Assembly (NCBI GenBank): GCA_964469555.1
Contig: CAYYAQ010000001.1
Coordinates: 58,141 to 122,140, forward strand
DNA: 64,000 bases
From: an uncultured candidatus Brocadiaceae bacterium
GTDB lineage: Bacteria; Planctomycetota; UBA1135; UBA2386
Direction of reading: 5' to 3'
The notes under the pieces were generated by a model, which saw only the letters and a list, made by a program, of their open reading frames with translations, made no database searches and had not been told where the DNA came from. A program made the translations under genes and the position numbers. Positions 9,093 through 40,386 of this stretch are shown piece by piece. Numbering within the stretch: the first letter of the stretch is position 1; each line of letters begins with the position of its first letter.

Positions 9093-10856
9093 ATGAAGAG
9101 TCCCATTACCCTCGTCTGCGTAGCCGCGTCGGTTCTGTCAGCGTCTCTGTCCGCGCAAGTCACGATCGTCAAAGGCGTGGCGCCGAATGGATTCGTTCGT
9201 TCGATGAACAACAACAACAACAGCTTCGCCTTGACCCCCGATGGGGCGATCTGGGCCGTGGTGTACGTTGTCGACAACGCTGGCGCGAACGGTCACCTCG
9301 AGCTTCGCCGCTCCCTGACCCACGGCAACATCTGGCTGAGCGGCACCTATCCGCTTCCCAACAACACATCGCACAACAACCACCACAACAACTCGGGTTG
9401 CATCGTCGCCGGTCGCGACGGCGACAAGCTCCACGTGACGTGGGGGGATCGGACAGCGAATGCCTCGTACTGGTCAGCGATGTACCAGGTCTTCAACACG
9501 AACACATTGAAGTGGGTGGGTACCCCGAAGTTGCTGGCCAAGGGATACGGGGCGAACAACCAGTTCTGGCCTGTCGACATCGCGATGACGGCGAAGGGCA
9601 CGCTGGCCGTTTGCATCTCCGGCCACCGAAGTGGTGGTCTCGGCCTCGGAGCATGGGACTGCGGTCTTGCCGTCAAGCCACGCGGTGGGTCGTTCAACAC
9701 GACACTGCTCAACCTCCGCAACGGCGGGGCGTCCTACTCGCAAAACGCGAGCATCGTCAGCGTGGACGAGACCATCCACTGCTGCATGAAGAACAGCACC
9801 GGCGGTTACGGAATCTGCTACCGAGCGTACGACACCGAGGGCAAGAAGTGGAATCAGGCTTCGCAGGTCTTCGTGGGGCCCAACAACAACGCCGGCATCG
9901 CTGCGGGCAACAAGAGCGTGATTGCGGCAGACCGCGACGGTGGCCTCTACGTGATCTACTGCACCGGGAATAGCTCCGCGCCACGGACGCTCCGACTGGC
10001 CTACGCCGCACCCGGCAAGGGTGGGTCCAACGTCGACTGGAAGGACTTCCACATCATCAAGAACACCCAGACGATTGGGACGAACTACCGGAAGGCCGCA
10101 GCCGGCAAGTACGGCTACCCCCAGATCCAGGGTGGCAACTCGAACACCTTCAACTACACCCTCGCGAGCGCGGCTGGCGGCAACATATACGCCGTCTACA
10201 GCAAGTCGTTCGAGACGTTCGCGAGTCTCTACGTCCAGAGCTTCAACAAGGGGAGTTCCGTTCTACCCGAGGTCAAGATCAGTGGGACCACGAAGCCCTA
10301 CTCGTTCGAGTGGATCACGGGCCTTCGCAACGGCGATCACAGTTACTCGGCATCCTGGTTGTCGTTCGGAAAGACGGACGCGCCGTCTCCGAACAACGGG
10401 ACGTACCCGAACGGCCAGGTGGACTTCTGGCGACTCGGGAGCAACTCGATCGCGCGTTCCGTGGCGTTGGGGACCGGTTGCCAGGGCAAGCTCGCCAAGC
10501 GTCCCCGGGTGCACGCGTACGACACCCTTCCCACGCTGGGCACGACCTTCAAGATTCAACTCGATCGCTTCCCGGCGAGTGCCAACTTCTTCCTCGCGAT
10601 TGGCACCTCGATGTTGCTGCCACCGCTCAACCTCGGCTTCATGTTGTCGCCGACGTGTGACCTGAACAACACGTTCCCGCTCATCGTTCCGCTTCAGGTG
10701 CCTTCGTCCGGTGTCATGACCGTTCCGTGGAACGTGCCGAACGACCCCAAGCTCATCGGTGCTCGCGTCTATGTCCAGTGCCTCGTGATTTCGCCGGGAT
10801 CGACCCCTGGCAACGCCGTGACGACAAATTCGCTCTGCGTAATTCTCGGTACCTGA
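9093..10856 (+). CDS. secreted protein of unknown function (paralog A), probably beta-propeller-like with a C-terminal Cys-containing module
   Basis: 587 aa with signal peptide MKSPITLVCVAASVLSASLSAQ and Asn-rich tracts. It is colinear with the 10933-12720 product. Confidence 0.7.
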   Translation: MKSPITLVCVAASVLSASLSAQVTIVKGVAPNGFVRSMNNNNNSFALTPDGAIWAVVYVVDNAGANGHLELRRSLTHGNIWLSGTYPLPNNTSHNNHHNNSGCIVAGRDGDKLHVTWGDRTANASYWSAMYQVFNTNTLKWVGTPKLLAKGYGANNQFWPVDIAMTAKGTLAVCISGHRSGGLGLGAWDCGLAVKPRGGSFNTTLLNLRNGGASYSQNASIVSVDETIHCCMKNSTGGYGICYRAYDTEGKKWNQASQVFVGPNNNAGIAAGNKSVIAADRDGGLYVIYCTGNSSAPRTLRLAYAAPGKGGSNVDWKDFHIIKNTQTIGTNYRKAAAGKYGYPQIQGGNSNTFNYTLASAAGGNIYAVYSKSFETFASLYVQSFNKGSSVLPEVKISGTTKPYSFEWITGLRNGDHSYSASWLSFGKTDAPSPNNGTYPNGQVDFWRLGSNSIARSVALGTGCQGKLAKRPRVHAYDTLPTLGTTFKIQLDRFPASANFFLAIGTSMLLPPLNLGFMLSPTCDLNNTFPLIVPLQVPSSGVMTVPWNVPNDPKLIGARVYVQCLVISPGSTPGNAVTTNSLCVILGT

Positions 10857-10932: not shown

Positions 10933-12720
10933 ATGGCAATCTCAATTCGTCTTTCCCTCGTTGCCGCTGCCACTCTGACCACAGTGGTCGGTGCGCAATT
11001 GTCTGGGCCGCCGACGATCATAAAGGGCACGGCGCCCGGTGGCGACGTGCGTTCGATGAGCAACAACCAGAATTCGCTGGCGTCGCTCGCGGATGGGTCG
11101 CTCGCCGCGGTCATCTACAAACAGTCGACGGCGACGACTGGTGGGCATCTCGCTCTCGGGATCTCTACCGACTTCATGAAGTGGACGTTCTATCCGTTGC
11201 CGCACAACACCGGGCACCGGGTGCACGAGTGGGAGTCCGGCGTTTTGTGCGCTGGCCACAAGTGTGACGTTCTGCATGTCGGTTGGTCGGACCGGTCCGT
11301 GGGTGGTGTGTACCACTCGGCCTGGTATCAGACGTTCAGTACGTCGACTCGCAAATGGGTTGGTGCGCCGGTCAGGATTGCCGCCGCCAACGCCAGCCTC
11401 AAGCAGTCCGTGCAGGTCCGGGACATCACTGTCACGCCGCTCGACACGGTCGCGATTGCGTACGGTGTCGGTGCGACCGGTGGCCTTGGCATGGGTGCTG
11501 ACGAGTGCGCTATCAGGATCAGGAAGAAAGGTCAGTCCTCGTTCAGCGCGCAGTACGCCATGCGCAGCGGCGGGCTCAGCTGGTCTCGCGAGGCATCGAT
11601 CGTCGCATCCGGAGAGGTGATCCACTGCGCGTTCAAGAATCAGAAGGGCGTAGGCGGCATCGCGTACCGATCGTTCGACACCACCACGCTGAAGTGGCAG
11701 CAGGCGTCCCAGGTCATGGTCGGCCCCAACAACAACGGGACCAGGGGCATCGACGGGATCAACGCCGGCAACAAGGCGTTGATCTCCAAGGATACGGAAG
11801 GTGGCCTCTACATCATGTACGTCACAGGCTCGGCGGGGGGGCTGAAGAGCAACAACAAGATGCGCATGGCCTACGCCAAGCCCGGTACGGGGAGCAAGAA
11901 CGCCGACTGGAAGGACCTGGAGGTCATGCCGCACACGACGACGTTGGGGAAGAACCCGCGAAGCGTCGGCAAGACCGATCCGTCCTACCCGATGATGCAG
12001 GGTGGCGATACTTCCTGCACGTACTACACGCTCGCGCCTGGTTTCCAGGGATCGATGATTGTCGTCTACAGCAAGCCGTGGGAGGACTTCCAGAACAATT
12101 ACCTCCAGATCTGGCAGTACGGCATCAACTACCCGATGCCGACGAAGGAGATCTCGTTCTGGACCGGCACTGAGCCGTTCGTCTTCGAGCGGATGGGGGG
12201 AATGCGCAGCACGTTCTCCGTAGGCCACGGCGTGTGGGTCGTCTACGGCAAGAACGACAAGCCGACAGCGGGCCAGGCCCCGAACGGCTGGGTGCGCCTG
12301 TGGGCTTCTTCCTACAGCACGGGGAGGACGATCTCTTTTGGCACCGGATGCAAGGGAAGGTTGCCGAAGATCCCGCGGATGCACGCGGACGAACAGTTCG
12401 CGCAACTCTCCCTGCCCTACTGGATGGACTTTGAACATTTTCCGGCGAATGCGAACTTCTTCCTCGTCCTCGGCACCAAGTGCGCCAGGACGGATCTCAC
12501 TCTCATGGGTGCGCCGGGTTGCGAGTTGAACATCGACTTCCCGGTCGCCGTCCCGCTGAAGGTGAACGCCGCCGGCGCGTTGAGGTTGACCTGGAACGTG
12601 CCGAATGACAGCAATCTGATCGGGCAGTACTTCTTTGCGCAGTCGTGGGTGGTGAGCCCGATCGCGAACGCCCTGTTGGCGGTGACGACGAACGCGCAGC
12701 GGACGTCGATCTCACGCTAG
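10933..12720 (+). CDS. secreted protein of unknown function (paralog B)
   Basis: 595 aa with signal peptide MAISIRLSLVAAATLTTVVGAQ. It aligns by eye along its full length with paralog A: IIKGTAPGG/IVKGVAPNG, LHVGWSDR/LHVTWGDR, WVGAP/WVGTP, IHCAFKN/IHCCMKN, LRMAYA/MRMAYA, and C-terminal GTGC.GKL...C(D/E)LN...Q. Confidence 0.7.
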   Translation: MAISIRLSLVAAATLTTVVGAQLSGPPTIIKGTAPGGDVRSMSNNQNSLASLADGSLAAVIYKQSTATTGGHLALGISTDFMKWTFYPLPHNTGHRVHEWESGVLCAGHKCDVLHVGWSDRSVGGVYHSAWYQTFSTSTRKWVGAPVRIAAANASLKQSVQVRDITVTPLDTVAIAYGVGATGGLGMGADECAIRIRKKGQSSFSAQYAMRSGGLSWSREASIVASGEVIHCAFKNQKGVGGIAYRSFDTTTLKWQQASQVMVGPNNNGTRGIDGINAGNKALISKDTEGGLYIMYVTGSAGGLKSNNKMRMAYAKPGTGSKNADWKDLEVMPHTTTLGKNPRSVGKTDPSYPMMQGGDTSCTYYTLAPGFQGSMIVVYSKPWEDFQNNYLQIWQYGINYPMPTKEISFWTGTEPFVFERMGGMRSTFSVGHGVWVVYGKNDKPTAGQAPNGWVRLWASSYSTGRTISFGTGCKGRLPKIPRMHADEQFAQLSLPYWMDFEHFPANANFFLVLGTKCARTDLTLMGAPGCELNIDFPVAVPLKVNAAGALRLTWNVPNDSNLIGQYFFAQSWVVSPIANALLAVTTNAQRTSISR

Positions 12721-33665: not shown

Positions 33666-33678
33666 CCGTACAAGAAAT

Positions 33679-33702
33679 CGCCGCGGCCTCGCGGTCGCGG
33701 CG
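33679..33702. terminator. GC-rich hairpin between convergent genes (likely terminator, better tail on the minus strand)
   Basis: CGCCGCG-gcctcgcggt-CGCGGCG. On the minus strand it is followed by ATTTCTTG. Confidence 0.45.
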
Positions 33703-33726: not shown

Positions 33727-34461
33727 TTATGGCAGTGGGGCGACTTGGGTGACAAGGCCGCCGACGATGTCCGCGGCTTCGTACGTCGCGTTGCCGTCGG
33801 CGATCAGGCAGGGAGTCTGGTCCTTGCCGCCGACCGCCGTCAGTTCGGAGTTCGCTGCGGCGTCGTCGGTGACGTTCTTGACCGTGATGCTGTTGCCCAA
33901 GTGGAGGTTGTCCACGGCGAGCTGGGCATCGCGGCTGGGGCCACATGCGTTCTTGATGTAGAGCGTGCCCGACGCGCTGCCGGGTCCGGCGAGGGTGTCG
34001 CCGCCGATCTTCTCGCACTCCGCGGCGAGTTGAGCGATGTCGCGACGCCCACCCGGGCCGTCGGAATGCGCGTAGCGTACGATTCCCTCACGGTCGATGA
34101 TCACGGTGGCGCGATCGCCGATGCCGTGGTCTTCGATCCAGAGGCCGAGGCTCTTGCAGTAGCCACCCTTGGGATGGAAGTCAGCGAGCAGCGGGAACGA
34201 GACGCCGCCGAGGCTGCTGCCCCAGTTGGCGTGGGAGTAGACAGTGTCCACGCTGACACCCAGAACCTGGGTGCCGGCCGAGCGGAAGCGGTCGAGGAGC
34301 GCCTCCGTCTCGGGGACTTCGTGGCTTCAAGTGGGGGTCCAGTCGAGGGGATAGAACAGCAACATCACGTTGCACTTGCCCAGAAAATCAGACGACTTGA
34401 CTTCGCGGCCAAACTGATCTTTCAAGGCGAAGTCTGGTGCCTTTTGGCCGACTTCGATCAT
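33727..34461 (-). CDS. AhpE/BCP-type peroxiredoxin fused to a glutaredoxin/NrdH-like domain; in-frame TGA (34329-34327) at the peroxidatic Cys position, probable selenocysteine
   Basis: Track ORFs 34327-34719 and 33727-34251 are in one frame and separated only by TGA. Read through: MIEVGQKAPDFALKDQ...LLFYPLDWTPT-[TGA]-SHEVPE...FPLLADFHPKG...ATVIIDREGIVRY, then LYIKNACGPS...TPCLIADG. Confidence 0.8.
34285..34320 (-). promoter_or_regulatory. candidate bacterial SECIS-like stem-loop downstream of the peroxiredoxin TGA
   Basis: Hand-folded imperfect hairpin 7-42 nt after the UGA. Pairings are GAAGU/GCUUC, CGAG/CUCG and GAG/CUC, with an apical GCG loop. Confidence 0.35.
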
Positions 34462-34571
34462 GGGTTGGTTTCCTTTCGTTGCGCGTTCATCCGCCGTGGA
34501 TGGTTTCGGGGGGGGAGGTGATTGTCCAGCGGAGCGGCGGTGGTTCCATCGCAATCGAGAAGAATCTGGCG

Positions 34572-35666
34572 CTACTTCGAGAGTGTCACGCGCTGCAACA
34601 GCGCGCGAAGGTGTTCCCGATACGCCTCGGGCTTGTCGTTGCTGACCTGGCCGTGTTTCGATCCCTCCTCGATCCAAAGGACCTTCCGAGGTTCGGGGGC
34701 GGGCAGGGCCGCGAAGCACTCGCGGACCACGTCCGGTGGGACCCGATAGTCGTCGCCCGCGCCGACGAACAGGGACGGCAACGTCTCTGGGAGGCTCTTG
34801 AAGACGTCGATCGGTCGAATGTCCCCCATGTCGAAGTCGGACCAGAGTTCCAGGTGCCAGAGCACGATCGACGTGAAGAATCCCGGTAGGCCGACCCCGC
34901 GCTTCAGTTGTCGATGGGCAGTCTCGAGCATGTTGGTCATCGGCGCTTCTAGAACCAGCCCGCGCAATTCCTTTATCTTGGGCGCGGCGAGGGCGGCGGC
35001 TACCCCGCCCATGCTGACGCCAAACAGGATCAGCGGCGCGCGGATCCCGCCCGGGCGTCCGCGCAGGTATTCGACCGCGGCGAGCACGTCATCCTGTTCC
35101 TTGTATCCGAAGGTGAACGCGTGGTGCTCACTCCCTCCGTGGTTCGAGAGTTCGATGAGCAGTACGTCGGAGTCCAGGTTCCGGAACATGGCGGCGACGG
35201 GCTCGACTTCCATCGCGTTGCGGAAGAGGCCGTGCACGAGGACGACGACCGCCGTCGGTTTGTCGTCACGACATGGAACGAAGAACGCGCGCAGCTTGCG
35301 TCCCTCGGTGTTCGTGAAGTGCACCACGCGTTTCGTGATCGCGTCGACGCTCTCAGGTGTCTTCGGCGTACCATTCTCGAGTGATTGGCGGTCCTGACAG
35401 ATCCAGGTGCCTTTCTCGTCGAACACGGGTCCGAGGTAAGCCCTCTCGTCGCTTCGCGTGCCGACGACTTTCGAAACGAGGAAGCCGAGGATGCCAGGAA
35501 GCACGACGAACGCGTACACCGGCAACAGGATCAATTGGCGGACGAACAGCTTCTTCCAGAATCCGGGTGCGCGCCGTCGTTTCTTGCTCAGACCGCCCTG
35601 CAAGATCCATGCGAGCAGAAACGCCGCGAGGACGATGACGAGCATGAACTTCCCGATGAGAGTCAC
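34572..35666 (-). CDS. membrane-anchored alpha/beta hydrolase
   Basis: 364 aa with N-terminal TM helices, then a hydrolase fold with a GVSMGG nucleophile elbow. Confidence 0.8.
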   Translation of the reverse strand: MTLIGKFMLVIVLAAFLLAWILQGGLSKKRRRAPGFWKKLFVRQLILLPVYAFVVLPGILGFLVSKVVGTRSDERAYLGPVFDEKGTWICQDRQSLENGTPKTPESVDAITKRVVHFTNTEGRKLRAFFVPCRDDKPTAVVVLVHGLFRNAMEVEPVAAMFRNLDSDVLLIELSNHGGSEHHAFTFGYKEQDDVLAAVEYLRGRPGGIRAPLILFGVSMGGVAAALAAPKIKELRGLVLEAPMTNMLETAHRQLKRGVGLPGFFTSIVLWHLELWSDFDMGDIRPIDVFKSLPETLPSLFVGAGDDYRVPPDVVRECFAALPAPEPRKVLWIEEGSKHGQVSNDKPEAYREHLRALLQRVTLSK

Positions 35667-38399: not shown

Positions 38400-38961
38400 T
38401 TGTAGCACAGGATAATTGTAGCTCAGGGTCCATCCTTCGAGAAGAGCCTCCAGCCCCCTTGTCCCGTGTCGATCGCGGCATCGGCGCAACGCAGCCACGG
38501 ATTCCTCGGATCATTCTCTCGCCCGACTGGAAGAAGGTCTTTGGCCAACAGTACAGCTTGAAGTGCCGCAGGAGCGTCGTACGCACCGCGAGCGCTCGCA
38601 ATGTGGTTTTGTCCGTGGCGATCTTCAGCCATGAGGTCGGCGTCCGCGAATCGGTCGAGACTCTCGATCTCCGTCTCGAAGTGCATCTGGACGCCCAGGT
38701 CCCGACACCGTTCCTGCAGGATCGTGAGCAACTTCTTTCGACTCAGCCCGCAGAAGCCGCGCCCCGTCGACGTCACGCAGTTTCGGCGTAGTAGGTCTCG
38801 ATGTTGTCCAGCGTCTCGTCCGAGAACACCACACCCCAGCCAAGCGTGTCGTCGTGGCGGTTGCGCTCGAAGACCTGGATGTCGGCGTCCGGATACGCCT
38901 TCTTCATCAAGATGCTGAAGAAGAGGCCCGCGGGGCCGGCACCGATGCTGACGATCTTCAT
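38400..38961 (-). pseudogene. decayed remnant of an FAD-dependent monooxygenase
   Basis: An intact N-terminus [21 protein letters not shown]...FERN...LGWGVVFSD ends at a stop after 62 aa. The next frame has GRGFCGLSRKKLLTILQERCRDLGV...ADADLM, and a third frame has RHFKLYCWPKTFF. About 30 aa are missing between the blocks, and the C-terminal half is absent. Confidence 0.6.
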
Positions 38962-38970
38962 GGTCCAGGT

Positions 38971-40386
38971 TCAGGCATCGCGAAGTGTCGCGAGCATCTC
39001 GCCGATTCCGGTGAACTTCTGCCGAACCCGTCCGTCGGCCTCGCCGCGTTCCTTCTCGATCTTGTCGAGTAGCTGCCAGTCCGAATACGTGACGAATCGG
39101 ATATTGCGTTCACTCAGCAGAGCGACCATCTGTCCGCTCCCGTCCGCGGGCAGCTCCTCAGCCGTCTGTCCGGCGAGGTCTTCGACCATCTTCTCGACCG
39201 TCGCTTTCGAATCCGGACTGTTGGTGCCGATCAGGCCCGATGGTCCGCGCTTCGACCAGCCGACGACGTACTGGTTCGGCACCACTGTGTCGTCGTCCGC
39301 AGAGGCGACCACGCGACCATCCTTGTTCGGAATGATCCCCCAGCTTTGATGGAAGGGCACGCCGGGAATCTCGATGCCGCGATAGCCGATGGCCTTGAAC
39401 ACTATCTGCACGGACTCCTCCGCGTAGGAGTCGAGAGCCCGCGGCCTCGGCGTCCCATCCTTCGACTCGTACAACTCATTGCGTTGCAACCGCACGCCGA
39501 CGAGCTTGCCGTTCTCCCCGAGCAACTCGATCGGAGACACGAGCGACTGGCAGTGAACCTTGCGCTCTTGGTCCCCGGCGCCGGTCTTCGACGCCTCCGT
39601 CAGGAAGTTCAGGTTCTTCGGCGCGGTTTTCGGGGCGGCGCCGCTCTCGAGCCACTTTGCCGTCACCGGGTCGACGATGACACTTTCGGGATCGACGACG
39701 AGGTCGACGCCGTCGAGCTCGGCGATCTCGGCGATCTCCTTTGGCGAGAAGGCGGCCTGCGCCGGACCACGGCGACCGAGGAGGATCACTTCGCGTATCT
39801 TGCTCTCGCGCAGGGCTGCCAACGCGTAGTCTGCGATGTCGGTCGAGGCGAGGTGATCGGGGTCTTGGATGAGCACCCGGCACACGTCCATCGCGACGTT
39901 GCCGTTGCCGACGACCGCGACTCTCGTCGAGTTCGCGAGGTCGAACTTGCAGTCCCTGTAGTCGGGGTGGCCGTTGTACCAGAACACGAATTCCGTCGCG
40001 GATACGCAGCCTTCGAGGTCTTCGCCTGCGATGCCGAGGTCGCGCGAACTCTCGTTGCCCACGGCGTAGATAATCTGGTCGTAGTGCGCGGTGAGGTCTT
40101 CGACCTGGATGTCGCGCCCGAGCTTGACGTTGCCGAAGAACCGGAAGTTCGGGTGGGCCGCCGTCTTCTCGTAGACCCGGATCACGTTCTTGATCTTCTG
40201 GTGGTCTGGCGCGACGCCGCCGCGCACGAGTCCGTATGGCGTGGGCAGCCGATCGAACACGTCACAGCGTGCGTCGAGGCCGTCGACTTTGAACAGGGCG
40301 TCAACCGCGTAGAACGCGGACGGACCGGAACCGATGACTGCTACCCTTAGCGGGCGGGGGGGGGTGCCGATGGGAGATTCTGACAT
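38971..40386 (-). CDS. fprA: NADPH-ferredoxin reductase, adrenodoxin-reductase (FprA) type
   Basis: 471 aa with VAVIGSGPSAFYA, LPTPYGLVRGGVAPDHQKIK and VVGNGNVAMDVCRVL. Colinear with mycobacterial FprA as I remember it. Confidence 0.8.
   Translation of the reverse strand: MSESPIGTPPRPLRVAVIGSGPSAFYAVDALFKVDGLDARCDVFDRLPTPYGLVRGGVAPDHQKIKNVIRVYEKTAAHPNFRFFGNVKLGRDIQVEDLTAHYDQIIYAVGNESSRDLGIAGEDLEGCVSATEFVFWYNGHPDYRDCKFDLANSTRVAVVGNGNVAMDVCRVLIQDPDHLASTDIADYALAALRESKIREVILLGRRGPAQAAFSPKEIAEIAELDGVDLVVDPESVIVDPVTAKWLESGAAPKTAPKNLNFLTEASKTGAGDQERKVHCQSLVSPIELLGENGKLVGVRLQRNELYESKDGTPRPRALDSYAEESVQIVFKAIGYRGIEIPGVPFHQSWGIIPNKDGRVVASADDDTVVPNQYVVGWSKRGPSGLIGTNSPDSKATVEKMVEDLAGQTAEELPADGSGQMVALLSERNIRFVTYSDWQLLDKIEKERGEADGRVRQKFTGIGEMLATLRDA

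Follow-up and report, generated by a model that had tools for sequence, protein, structure and literature searches.

Results

A TGA codon at the peroxidatic position of a peroxiredoxin gene

Does the TGA codon that separates two annotated open reading frames (ORFs) in a peroxiredoxin-like locus of an uncultured candidatus Brocadiaceae bacterium terminate translation, or is it read as selenocysteine (Sec, U)? The locus is located on the minus strand of a 64-kb stretch of contig CAYYAQ010000001.1, which is analyzed here as a whole and called the window, and an earlier note made from the sequence alone had proposed that it contains a split selenoprotein gene. Our analysis suggests, with a probability of about 0.85, that the locus is one intact selenoprotein gene, predicted from sequence comparison to encode an AhpE-type peroxiredoxin of the one-Cys class, with U45 as the peroxidatic residue and a small glutaredoxin-like domain at the C terminus. 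Almost certainly, it is not a broken gene but a widespread member, routinely annotated wrongly, of a selenoprotein family that is already known.

The complete gene (33727..34461, minus strand) consists of 244 codons, including one in-frame UGA at codon 45, followed by TAA, and homology extends over both sides of the TGA. The start codon ATG is at 34461-34459, the stop codon TAA at 33729-33727, and the sole interruption of the frame is the TGA at 34329-34327. Hence, the ORFs 34327..34719 and 33727..34251 are the two halves of a single frame, as the earlier note had claimed. The joined product around this codon reads ...LLFYPLDWTPT-[TGA]-SHEVPETEALLDRF..., in which the UGA (34327..34329, minus strand) would specify U45 within the motif P38-x3-T42-x2-U45. 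The start codon is preceded at a distance of 9 nt by the sequence AAGGA (34471..34475, minus strand), which resembles a Shine–Dalgarno sequence, while 33 nt past the stop codon a GC hairpin and a T-rich run behind it resemble a terminator (33671..33694, minus strand). TGA is the commonest stop codon in the window, where it ends 18 of the 32 genes supported by Pfam matches, which argues against a global reassignment of this codon and for a recoding limited to this site. A crude and non-exhaustive scan of the window for further in-frame TGA codons between coding-like segments returned just a gene boundary at 38973, and it missed the peroxiredoxin TGA itself.

For the domain searches the product of the joined frame was written with Cys at the TGA position. 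The peroxiredoxin domain covers residues 1-141 (34039..34461, minus strand), of which residues 4-130 matched the Pfam family AhpC-TSA (PF00578) with an E-value of 1.9e-34 and a score of 118.7 bits, compared with the cut-off of 26. When the sequence was compared by phmmer with the proteins of known structure in PDB, the TGA position aligned with the peroxidatic Cys45 of Mycobacterium tuberculosis AhpE (1XXU, E 2.6e-25), and the seven best matches were all to this protein (MtAhpE). The fold was analyzed using an AlphaFold2 model of a homologue with Cys at this position (P0051; predicted local distance difference test score, pLDDT, of 86), which stood in for the peroxiredoxin part. In a Foldseek search this model matched AhpE with a TM-score of 0.88, and the top twelve matches were all MtAhpE. 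The protein has the active-site residues Pro38, Thr42, and Arg117, which show no or almost no variation within the family. Arg117, located in the DRAT motif downstream from the TGA, is invariant in 53 sequences, as are D116 and A118, which bears out the proposal that the part behind the TGA is still peroxiredoxin. The domain thus belongs to the AhpE-like subgroup and not to the Prx1, Prx5, Prx6, Tpx, or BCP class, and the placement of the TGA at the peroxidatic cysteine of an AhpE/BCP-type peroxiredoxin, made in the earlier note, agrees with AhpE as the closest relative in sequence as well as in fold. At the end of the domain, the codon for Cys149 in the sequence AAECEK (34015..34017, minus strand) specifies a residue that 90% or more of the family share and that is a candidate second redox cysteine.

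The TGA codon is conserved among homologues that are annotated as truncated proteins

To see how this codon is represented among homologues, 5.8 billion proteins were searched, which gave 3187 matches, and the best 120 of them were inspected. Nearly all of these 120 proteins are about 200 amino acids long and cover about 80% of the query, from which it follows that their annotated starts lie just past the TGA. The comparison with metagenome sequences showed the same codon as TGA in 77 of the 78 loci that cover the site among the best 80 loci taken, and as TGC in the remaining one. TGA was also observed in the loci L016-L018, L001, and L103, and TGC or TGT in rare homologues. Two Planctomycetes metagenome-assembled genomes (MAGs) and a 1.67 Mb contig contain the same TGA, preceded by a separately called AhpC-TSA ORF of 44 amino acids, and these three loci share with the window neighboring genes for an alpha/beta hydrolase, an M28 peptidase, GcvP, a DUF6797 protein, and a cytochrome c. 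A search of genome contigs with the single protein returned distant Cys peroxiredoxins and one Dehalococcoidia Sec-peroxiredoxin, and nothing else. The peroxiredoxin encoded on the Dehalococcoidia MAG chromosome OZ220672.1 (L001) is 43% identical, has TGA at the peroxidatic position, and is without the glutaredoxin-like domain.

The alignment with Cys-containing homologues, which the earlier note had proposed as a check, placed their cysteine exactly at the TGA. This is the case in a few full-length homologues (P0013, P0051, and P0054), and further Cys forms were observed in the loci L099-L102, L104, and L106. On the other hand, four public entries (P0007, P0155, P0176, and P0182) have Trp at the Sec position, which indicates that some pipelines translated the contigs with a code in which TGA specifies Trp. 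Overall, at least 572 metagenome stretches encode a relative, mostly from marine and sediment samples, and the family is almost exclusively of the Sec form, with few Cys forms. The public pipelines (NCBI, JGI, and others) present it either as a 44-amino-acid fragment and a truncated "redoxin" or "glutaredoxin-related" protein, or with W in place of the TGA, and it is not covered by any NCBIfam selenoprotein model. The family is thus systematically mis-annotated, and most of its entries other than those with Trp are truncated at the N terminus.

In the locus of the Cys-form fusion gene P0051 (L100:1002-1475) a gene for SelR/MsrB, methionine sulfoxide reductase B, is found about 1.5 kb away, which is consistent with an oxidative-stress neighborhood.

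The C-terminal domain has a glutaredoxin-like fold and is a separate gene in other lineages

The C-terminal part of the protein, at residues ~163-244 (33730..33975, minus strand), had been described in the earlier note as a glutaredoxin/NrdH-like module. Because the phmmer search with this domain against PDB returned nothing meaningful, a fold search was used. The AlphaFold2 model of the last 88 residues, made with the exact window sequence, had a pLDDT of 93.7 and the b-a-b-a-b-b-a order of a thioredoxin fold, with strands at positions 9-13, 36-40, 62-65, and 68-70 and helices at positions 18-29, 45-55, and 73-84 of the model. The best Foldseek matches were N-terminal domains of glutathione S-transferases (GST), the small dithiol glutaredoxin cGrx1 (7c10), and the NrdH-like protein BC3987 (3zij). 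Hence, the description as a glutaredoxin/NrdH-like module is supported, with a glutaredoxin/NrdH/GST-N fold in which helix 1 begins with the conserved cysteine of CGxS. In the window protein this is Cys173 of the CGPS sequence (33945-33943, minus strand), which the model places just before helix 1. A second cysteine, Cys218 (33810-33808, minus strand), directly follows the invariant, cis-Pro-type P217, which is located just before strand 3. The residues C173, G174, S176, P217, and C218 are conserved in the family, and many homologues have precomputed matches to PF00462, PF13417, or PF13409.

In many lineages the Sec-peroxiredoxin ends at about 155 amino acids, and a gene for a glutaredoxin-like protein of about 80 amino acids comes next, either within about 100 nt or overlapping. 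The motifs of the separate proteins are CGFS, CEYS, CEYC, or CGFC. This two-gene arrangement was observed in the loci L067, L070, L073, L075, L081, L083, L086, L092, L094, L085/L087/L098, and L106, the last of which is a Cys form. The window gene can therefore be viewed as the fused form of a conserved gene pair, and the conservation of the pair and of the fusion argues for a functional partnership of a peroxidase and its reductant.

Two hairpins downstream from the UGA are under selection for RNA structure

The earlier note had drawn an imperfect stem–loop 7-42 nt after the UGA. When the 87 nt from the UGA onward were folded, the predicted free energy was -44.1 kcal/mol (z -3.7), none of 200 shuffled sequences was as stable, and the RNA folded as two hairpins. 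Hairpin 1, CCGAG-A-CGGAGGCG...CGCUUCCG-CUCGG (34278..34313, minus strand; columns 17-52 of alignment A4), has a free energy of -22.9 kcal/mol. It is 36 nt long and located 14-49 nt past the UGA, with its loop in the window beginning about 27-30 nt past this codon. Thus, the proposed stem–loop exists at a somewhat different place than had been given, while hairpin 2 had gone unnoticed. The latter, GCACCCAG-GUU-CUGGGUGUC (34255..34275, minus strand; columns 55-75), starts 3 nt after hairpin 1, has a stem of 8-9 bp, and its G-U-N loop (34266-34264) is about 60 nt past the UGA. It overlies the codons for the residues G/H-T-Q-V-L-G-V.

The two hairpins are conserved in different ways. A single long hairpin is formed at the place of hairpin 1 in 72 of 73 distinct Sec-form sequences, with energies from -12 to -31 kcal/mol, and its pairing register and sequence vary by subfamily, with compensatory changes. 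Its loop is variable, with a leading G in 33 of the 73 sequences, and in the window it is CUC. Hairpin 1 is also formed in the Dehalococcoidia locus L001, although the peptide encoded there is unrelated. Hairpin 2, on the other hand, is almost invariant in its family form ACACCCAG-GUN-CUGGGUGU, with a GUN loop in 71 of the 73 sequences and 98.1% of the alignment cells paired. Changes on both sides were observed at four of its eight pairs, including C-G to U-A at columns 57/73 (10 sequences) and G-C to A-U at columns 63/67 (16 sequences), and some pairs are kept through non-synonymous changes, such as Val to Ile (H/V to H/I) and Gly to Ser. Four-fold degenerate sites in the stem are fixed, with the codons GGU in 69, CUG or UUG in 71, and ACC in 64 of the 73 sequences, even though in the window GGU accounts for just 19% of the Gly codons. 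The Val codon of the loop, in contrast, can vary at its third position. The same arrangement of two hairpins, including ACACCCAG-GUG-CUGGGUGU, is present in L001 (L001:3133-3219). Because this 43% identical protein from Dehalococcoidia has no glutaredoxin-like domain, the RNA element predates the fusion and spans phyla.

To compare the Sec and Cys forms, the stability of each hairpin was related to that of synonymously recoded sequences. The mean z values of hairpins 1 and 2 were -2.35 and -2.26 for the Sec forms (n=54), with -3.2 and -3.25 for the window, compared with -0.76 and -0.66 for the Cys forms (n=4). The median energies in the 73 Sec forms and seven Cys forms were -20.8 and -10.4 kcal/mol for hairpin 1 (Mann-Whitney p ~0.001), and -12.0 and -7.2 kcal/mol for hairpin 2 (p ~0.0004), and the Sec forms are more stable although the Cys set is more GC-rich. 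These data show that both hairpins are under selection for RNA structure, and specifically in the TGA forms. RNAalifold returned no consensus structure for an alignment of 68 sequences; since the register of hairpin 1 differs among subfamilies, named structures were tested instead of such a consensus. A second exact copy of the hairpin 2 motif was not found elsewhere in the window.

The minimum free energy (MFE) fold of the window sequence also contains a 5-bp stem CCACG/CGUGG (34248-34252 with 34320-34324, minus strand; columns 6-10/78-82), which encloses both hairpins as a three-way junction. This stem is not supported as a family feature: 65% of its positions are paired compared with 24-40% in slid controls, but its covariation is not significant, as 94 of 500 shuffles scored at least as high.

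A single-domain relative in the Planctomycetota MAG GCA_041398665.1 (L107:10001-10468, P0190) has GGA, a Gly codon, at the Sec/Cys site. Both of its downstream hairpins are fully intact despite the GGA, with an energy of -39.5 kcal/mol. It may be a very recent inactivating change from TGA to GGA, or an error in the MAG consensus.

Selenocysteine insertion compared with other explanations of the UGA codon

One could also think of an ordinary Cys peroxiredoxin gene in which the TGA arose by nonsense mutation or by a mistake in sequencing or assembly. The gene callers did split it, and the GGA codon in L107 shows that the position can mutate. However, about 80 independent loci, which come from various samples and phyla, share this TGA with the frame and protein preserved on either side, TGA is far commoner at this site than TGC or TGT, and the RNA structure behind it is selected in the TGA forms specifically, so that the probability of a pseudogene or error is close to negligible. 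The Trp entries P0007, P0155, P0176, and P0182 could suggest that a suppressor or near-cognate tRNA instead inserts Trp, Gly, or Cys at the UGA, either through reassignment of the stop codon or through read-through that does not involve Sec. This is also very unlikely: apart from the use of TGA as a stop in 18 of the 32 window genes, Trp or Gly at the peroxidatic position would abolish catalysis, the Cys homologues align exactly there, and hairpins that are conserved downstream and contain a G-U loop are the hallmark of decoding by SelB (PMC13188914). It is the recurrence of the TGA, its correspondence to Cys, and its ordinary use as a stop in the window that make error, pseudogene, and reassignment so improbable. 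The annotation of nearly all homologues by NCBI, JGI, and other pipelines implies yet another possibility, namely two products, a 44-amino-acid peptide and an internally started "redoxin/glutaredoxin-related" protein of 174-199 amino acids. Such a split, however, would interrupt the peroxiredoxin fold behind its first strands, and the remainder would be left without the catalytic P-T-(C/U) loop. The internal starts differ among homologues in codon (M, V, or L) and in position, as is typical of gene-caller artefacts, and full-length Cys homologues exist as single proteins. Hence, two separate products are hardly credible.

Several observations weigh against a Sec-decoded fusion gene with a downstream selenocysteine insertion sequence (SECIS). 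The genes selA, selB, and selD and a tRNA-Sec, the absence of which would also lend some support to a pseudogene, were not found in the 64 kb of the window, in which ARAGORN detected no tRNA and the Pfam search of about 40 large ORFs no SelA, SelB, or SelD. Since the window is a small part of a multi-megabase genome, this absence is expected and uninformative. The match of residues 166-224 to the Pfam family Glutaredoxin (PF00462) was below the gathering score (19.8 bits compared with 22.9; E 9e-4). Rfam gave no match at gathering thresholds, and at E-values up to 10 only chance-level matches to the wrong strand. According to the bacterial SECIS (bSECIS) consensus, the loop has 3-9 nt and starts with G, followed by G or U, with G in its two leading positions, the stem has 4-16 bp, the distance from the UGA to the loop is 16-37 nt, and the MFE is at or below -7.5 kcal/mol (PMC13188914). 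Hairpin 1 agrees with this consensus in stem size, distance, and energy, but the CUC loop in the window lacks the leading G, while hairpin 2 agrees in stem, loop, and energy, but is located about 60 nt from the UGA. An RNA structure does follow the UGA, as the earlier note had proposed, but in the window each hairpin conforms to some of the bSECIS rules and neither to all of them. Moreover, the Cys forms that served as the control are few (n=7), and the sequences compared are phylogenetically related; a hairpin 2 of similar strength is kept in the Cys form L099 and the Cys single-domain relative L104; and the codons for D/H-T-Q-V-L-G-V are inherently self-complementary, so that the protein motif by itself accounts for a part of hairpin 2. 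The T-Q-V-L-G motif is lost in three other Cys forms, which have TLPVA, TQVAA, and TQVMA, and this suggests that its near-invariance in the Sec forms is partly due to an RNA constraint.

Which hairpin serves as the SECIS

The two hairpins most likely act together as one composite SECIS. As regards their roles, it could be tentatively proposed, with less than even confidence, that the element is bipartite, with the GUN-loop hairpin 2 as the SelB-binding part and with hairpin 1 serving as a spacer whose folding moves hairpin 2 up to the ribosome entrance. The CAGGU(N)CUG of hairpin 2 is similar to the sequence GCAGGUCUGC around G23/U24 of the E. coli fdhF SECIS. We confirmed the fdhF sequence in 5419 of 5426 E. 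coli genomes. Its G23 and U24 are the nucleotides that contact SelB. The difference is that the corresponding G and U are here 41 nt further downstream, which is about the length of hairpin 1 (36 nt) together with the linker. In general, the position of the stem–loop within the coding sequence just 3′ of the UGA is that of a bacterial SECIS, while an arrangement of two hairpins is absent from the published consensus.

Alternatively, hairpin 1 alone could be the SECIS, and hairpin 2 either a by-product of the T-Q-V-L-G codons or an element with a role in ribosome pausing or mRNA stability. We regard this as a serious possibility, although not the probable one. It would agree with the canonical distance of hairpin 1, the loop of which is located 20-30 nt past the UGA in 72 of 73 sequences, with its presence in L001, where the encoded peptide differs wholly, with the location of hairpin 2 beyond the 16-37 nt rule (PMC13188914), and with the comparable hairpin 2 in the Cys relatives L099 and L104. 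It is more difficult to reconcile with the fact that the hairpin 1 loop is not conserved and that the leading G is missing in the window and in 40 of the 73 relatives. The properties of hairpin 2 also argue against a by-product, namely the constancy of the GUN loop, the fixed four-fold stem sites including GGU, which makes up 19% of the window's Gly codons, the free third position in the loop, the pairs preserved via non-synonymous double changes, and the match of CAGGU to the SelB-binding loop region of fdhF. If the SECIS is bipartite, search tools based on SECIS models would systematically mis-model or miss this large family, and the near-invariance of the T-Q-V-L-G motif would be due in large part to the RNA. 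If hairpin 2 is the SelB site, the accepted geometry of bacterial SECIS elements would be widened.

Relation to known systems and proposed mechanism

The Sec-peroxiredoxins with TxxU or PxxxTxxU motifs are an established family (PMC13188914, PMC1088965), which is also listed in a 2026 review (PMC13188914). They are among the most abundant marine selenoprotein families, represented by 43 Sargasso Sea genes and by 253 genes of the Global Ocean Sampling (GOS) data (PMC1088965, PMC2398784). Additionally, a published marine planctomycete possesses all of the Sec machinery, and its Sec-peroxiredoxin genes are split (PMC4807772, S9 Table). The only peroxiredoxin fusion described in the GOS analysis is that with a PP2C phosphatase (PMC2398784), and no occurrence of the motif YPLDWTPTU came up in that portion of the GOS selenoprotein sequences that was searched. 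The window protein is similar to the prototype of the family, PrxU of Eubacterium acidaminophilum, in the AhpC/TSA fold and in having Sec where P-x3-T-x2-U would otherwise contain the peroxidatic Cys. It differs from PrxU in its AhpE-like domain, its C-terminal glutaredoxin-like domain, and in not being a PrxU equivalog, as its score against the NCBIfam model NF040737 was 67.5 bits compared with the cut-off of 270, and no NCBIfam model scored above its cut-off.

The closest solved structure is that of M. tuberculosis AhpE (Rv2238c, 1XXU). This is a one-Cys peroxiredoxin, and mycoredoxin-1, a homologue of glutaredoxin, reduces its oxidized form, which may happen directly or via S-mycothiolation, with a mixed disulfide to a low-molecular-weight thiol as the intermediate (PMC4360819). 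Reduction by a glutaredoxin homologue is also the logic of the tethered domain in the window protein. The differences are that AhpE uses Cys and a separate reductant tied to mycothiol, while the window family has the additional conserved Cys149. Mycothiol is not known to be made by Planctomycetes. Peroxiredoxin–glutaredoxin hybrids, such as PGdx of Haemophilus influenzae, also contain both domains in one chain, in which the C-terminal glutaredoxin domain recycles the peroxidatic residue with glutathione. These hybrids have a Prx5-type domain, Cys and not Sec, and a classical dithiol CPYC glutaredoxin. The window gene shares with them the order of domains, but it encodes an AhpE-type domain with Sec, and a CGPS motif with a further Cys after the cis-Pro. 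A PGdx-type identity was ruled out by the AhpE-like domain together with the CGPS motif.

The following mechanism could be proposed. SelB with Sec-tRNA(Sec) would be recruited by the RNA structure in the coding sequence just past the UGA, in which hairpin 1 would be in the canonical place of a bacterial SECIS and hairpin 2 would provide a G-U loop of the kind that SelB recognizes. In the protein, by analogy with AhpE/mycoredoxin-1 and the hybrids, the U45 selenolate, activated by T42 and R117, would reduce a hydroperoxide and be converted to selenenic acid. The selenenic acid could be resolved by Cys173 of the tethered domain, or by a low-molecular-weight thiol first and then by Cys173, with a selenenylsulfide as the product, and the reduction may be completed by Cys218, Cys149, or glutathione.

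The earlier note had also considered that the fusion and its host context might be new. The host context is already known from the planctomycete (PMC4807772) and marine (PMC1088965, PMC2398784) data, whereas the literature covered here, which was incomplete, gave no description of an AhpE-type Sec-peroxiredoxin with a glutaredoxin-like domain or of a two-hairpin SECIS. Hence, the AhpE–glutaredoxin fusion and the two-hairpin element appear to be undescribed, while the rest is known. Existing knowledge is not overturned, because Sec-peroxiredoxins and the coupling of peroxiredoxin to glutaredoxin are both established. The interest of the locus is modest and lies chiefly in annotation and SECIS modelling; the main practical point is annotation, given the split or W-translated entries in a large family. 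An AhpE-type peroxidase tethered to its own putative glutaredoxin-like reductant also offers a clean case in nature in which Sec and Cys can be compared within a peroxiredoxin of the predicted one-Cys class.

Other observations in the window

On the minus strand, past the stop of an ORF for a flavoprotein-like protein of 471 amino acids (38971..40386), the frame continues at 38423-38961 with a typical FAD-binding N terminus, followed only by short ORFs of about 120 amino acids. In the syntenic loci L016 and L018 a FAD_binding_3/Oxidored_FMN gene of 748-776 amino acids is located near the peroxiredoxin gene. The window region may be a degraded or frameshifted copy.

In L016 the peroxiredoxin gene is also adjoined by three tandem genes for proteins of 330 amino acids without a Pfam match. 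On the plus strand of the window, two adjacent ORFs (9093-10856 and 10933-12720) encode proteins of 587 and 595 amino acids without a Pfam match. The GC contents of their three codon positions are identical and unusual (GC1 0.52, GC2 0.50, GC3 0.83), and the two ORFs are probably tandem paralogues.

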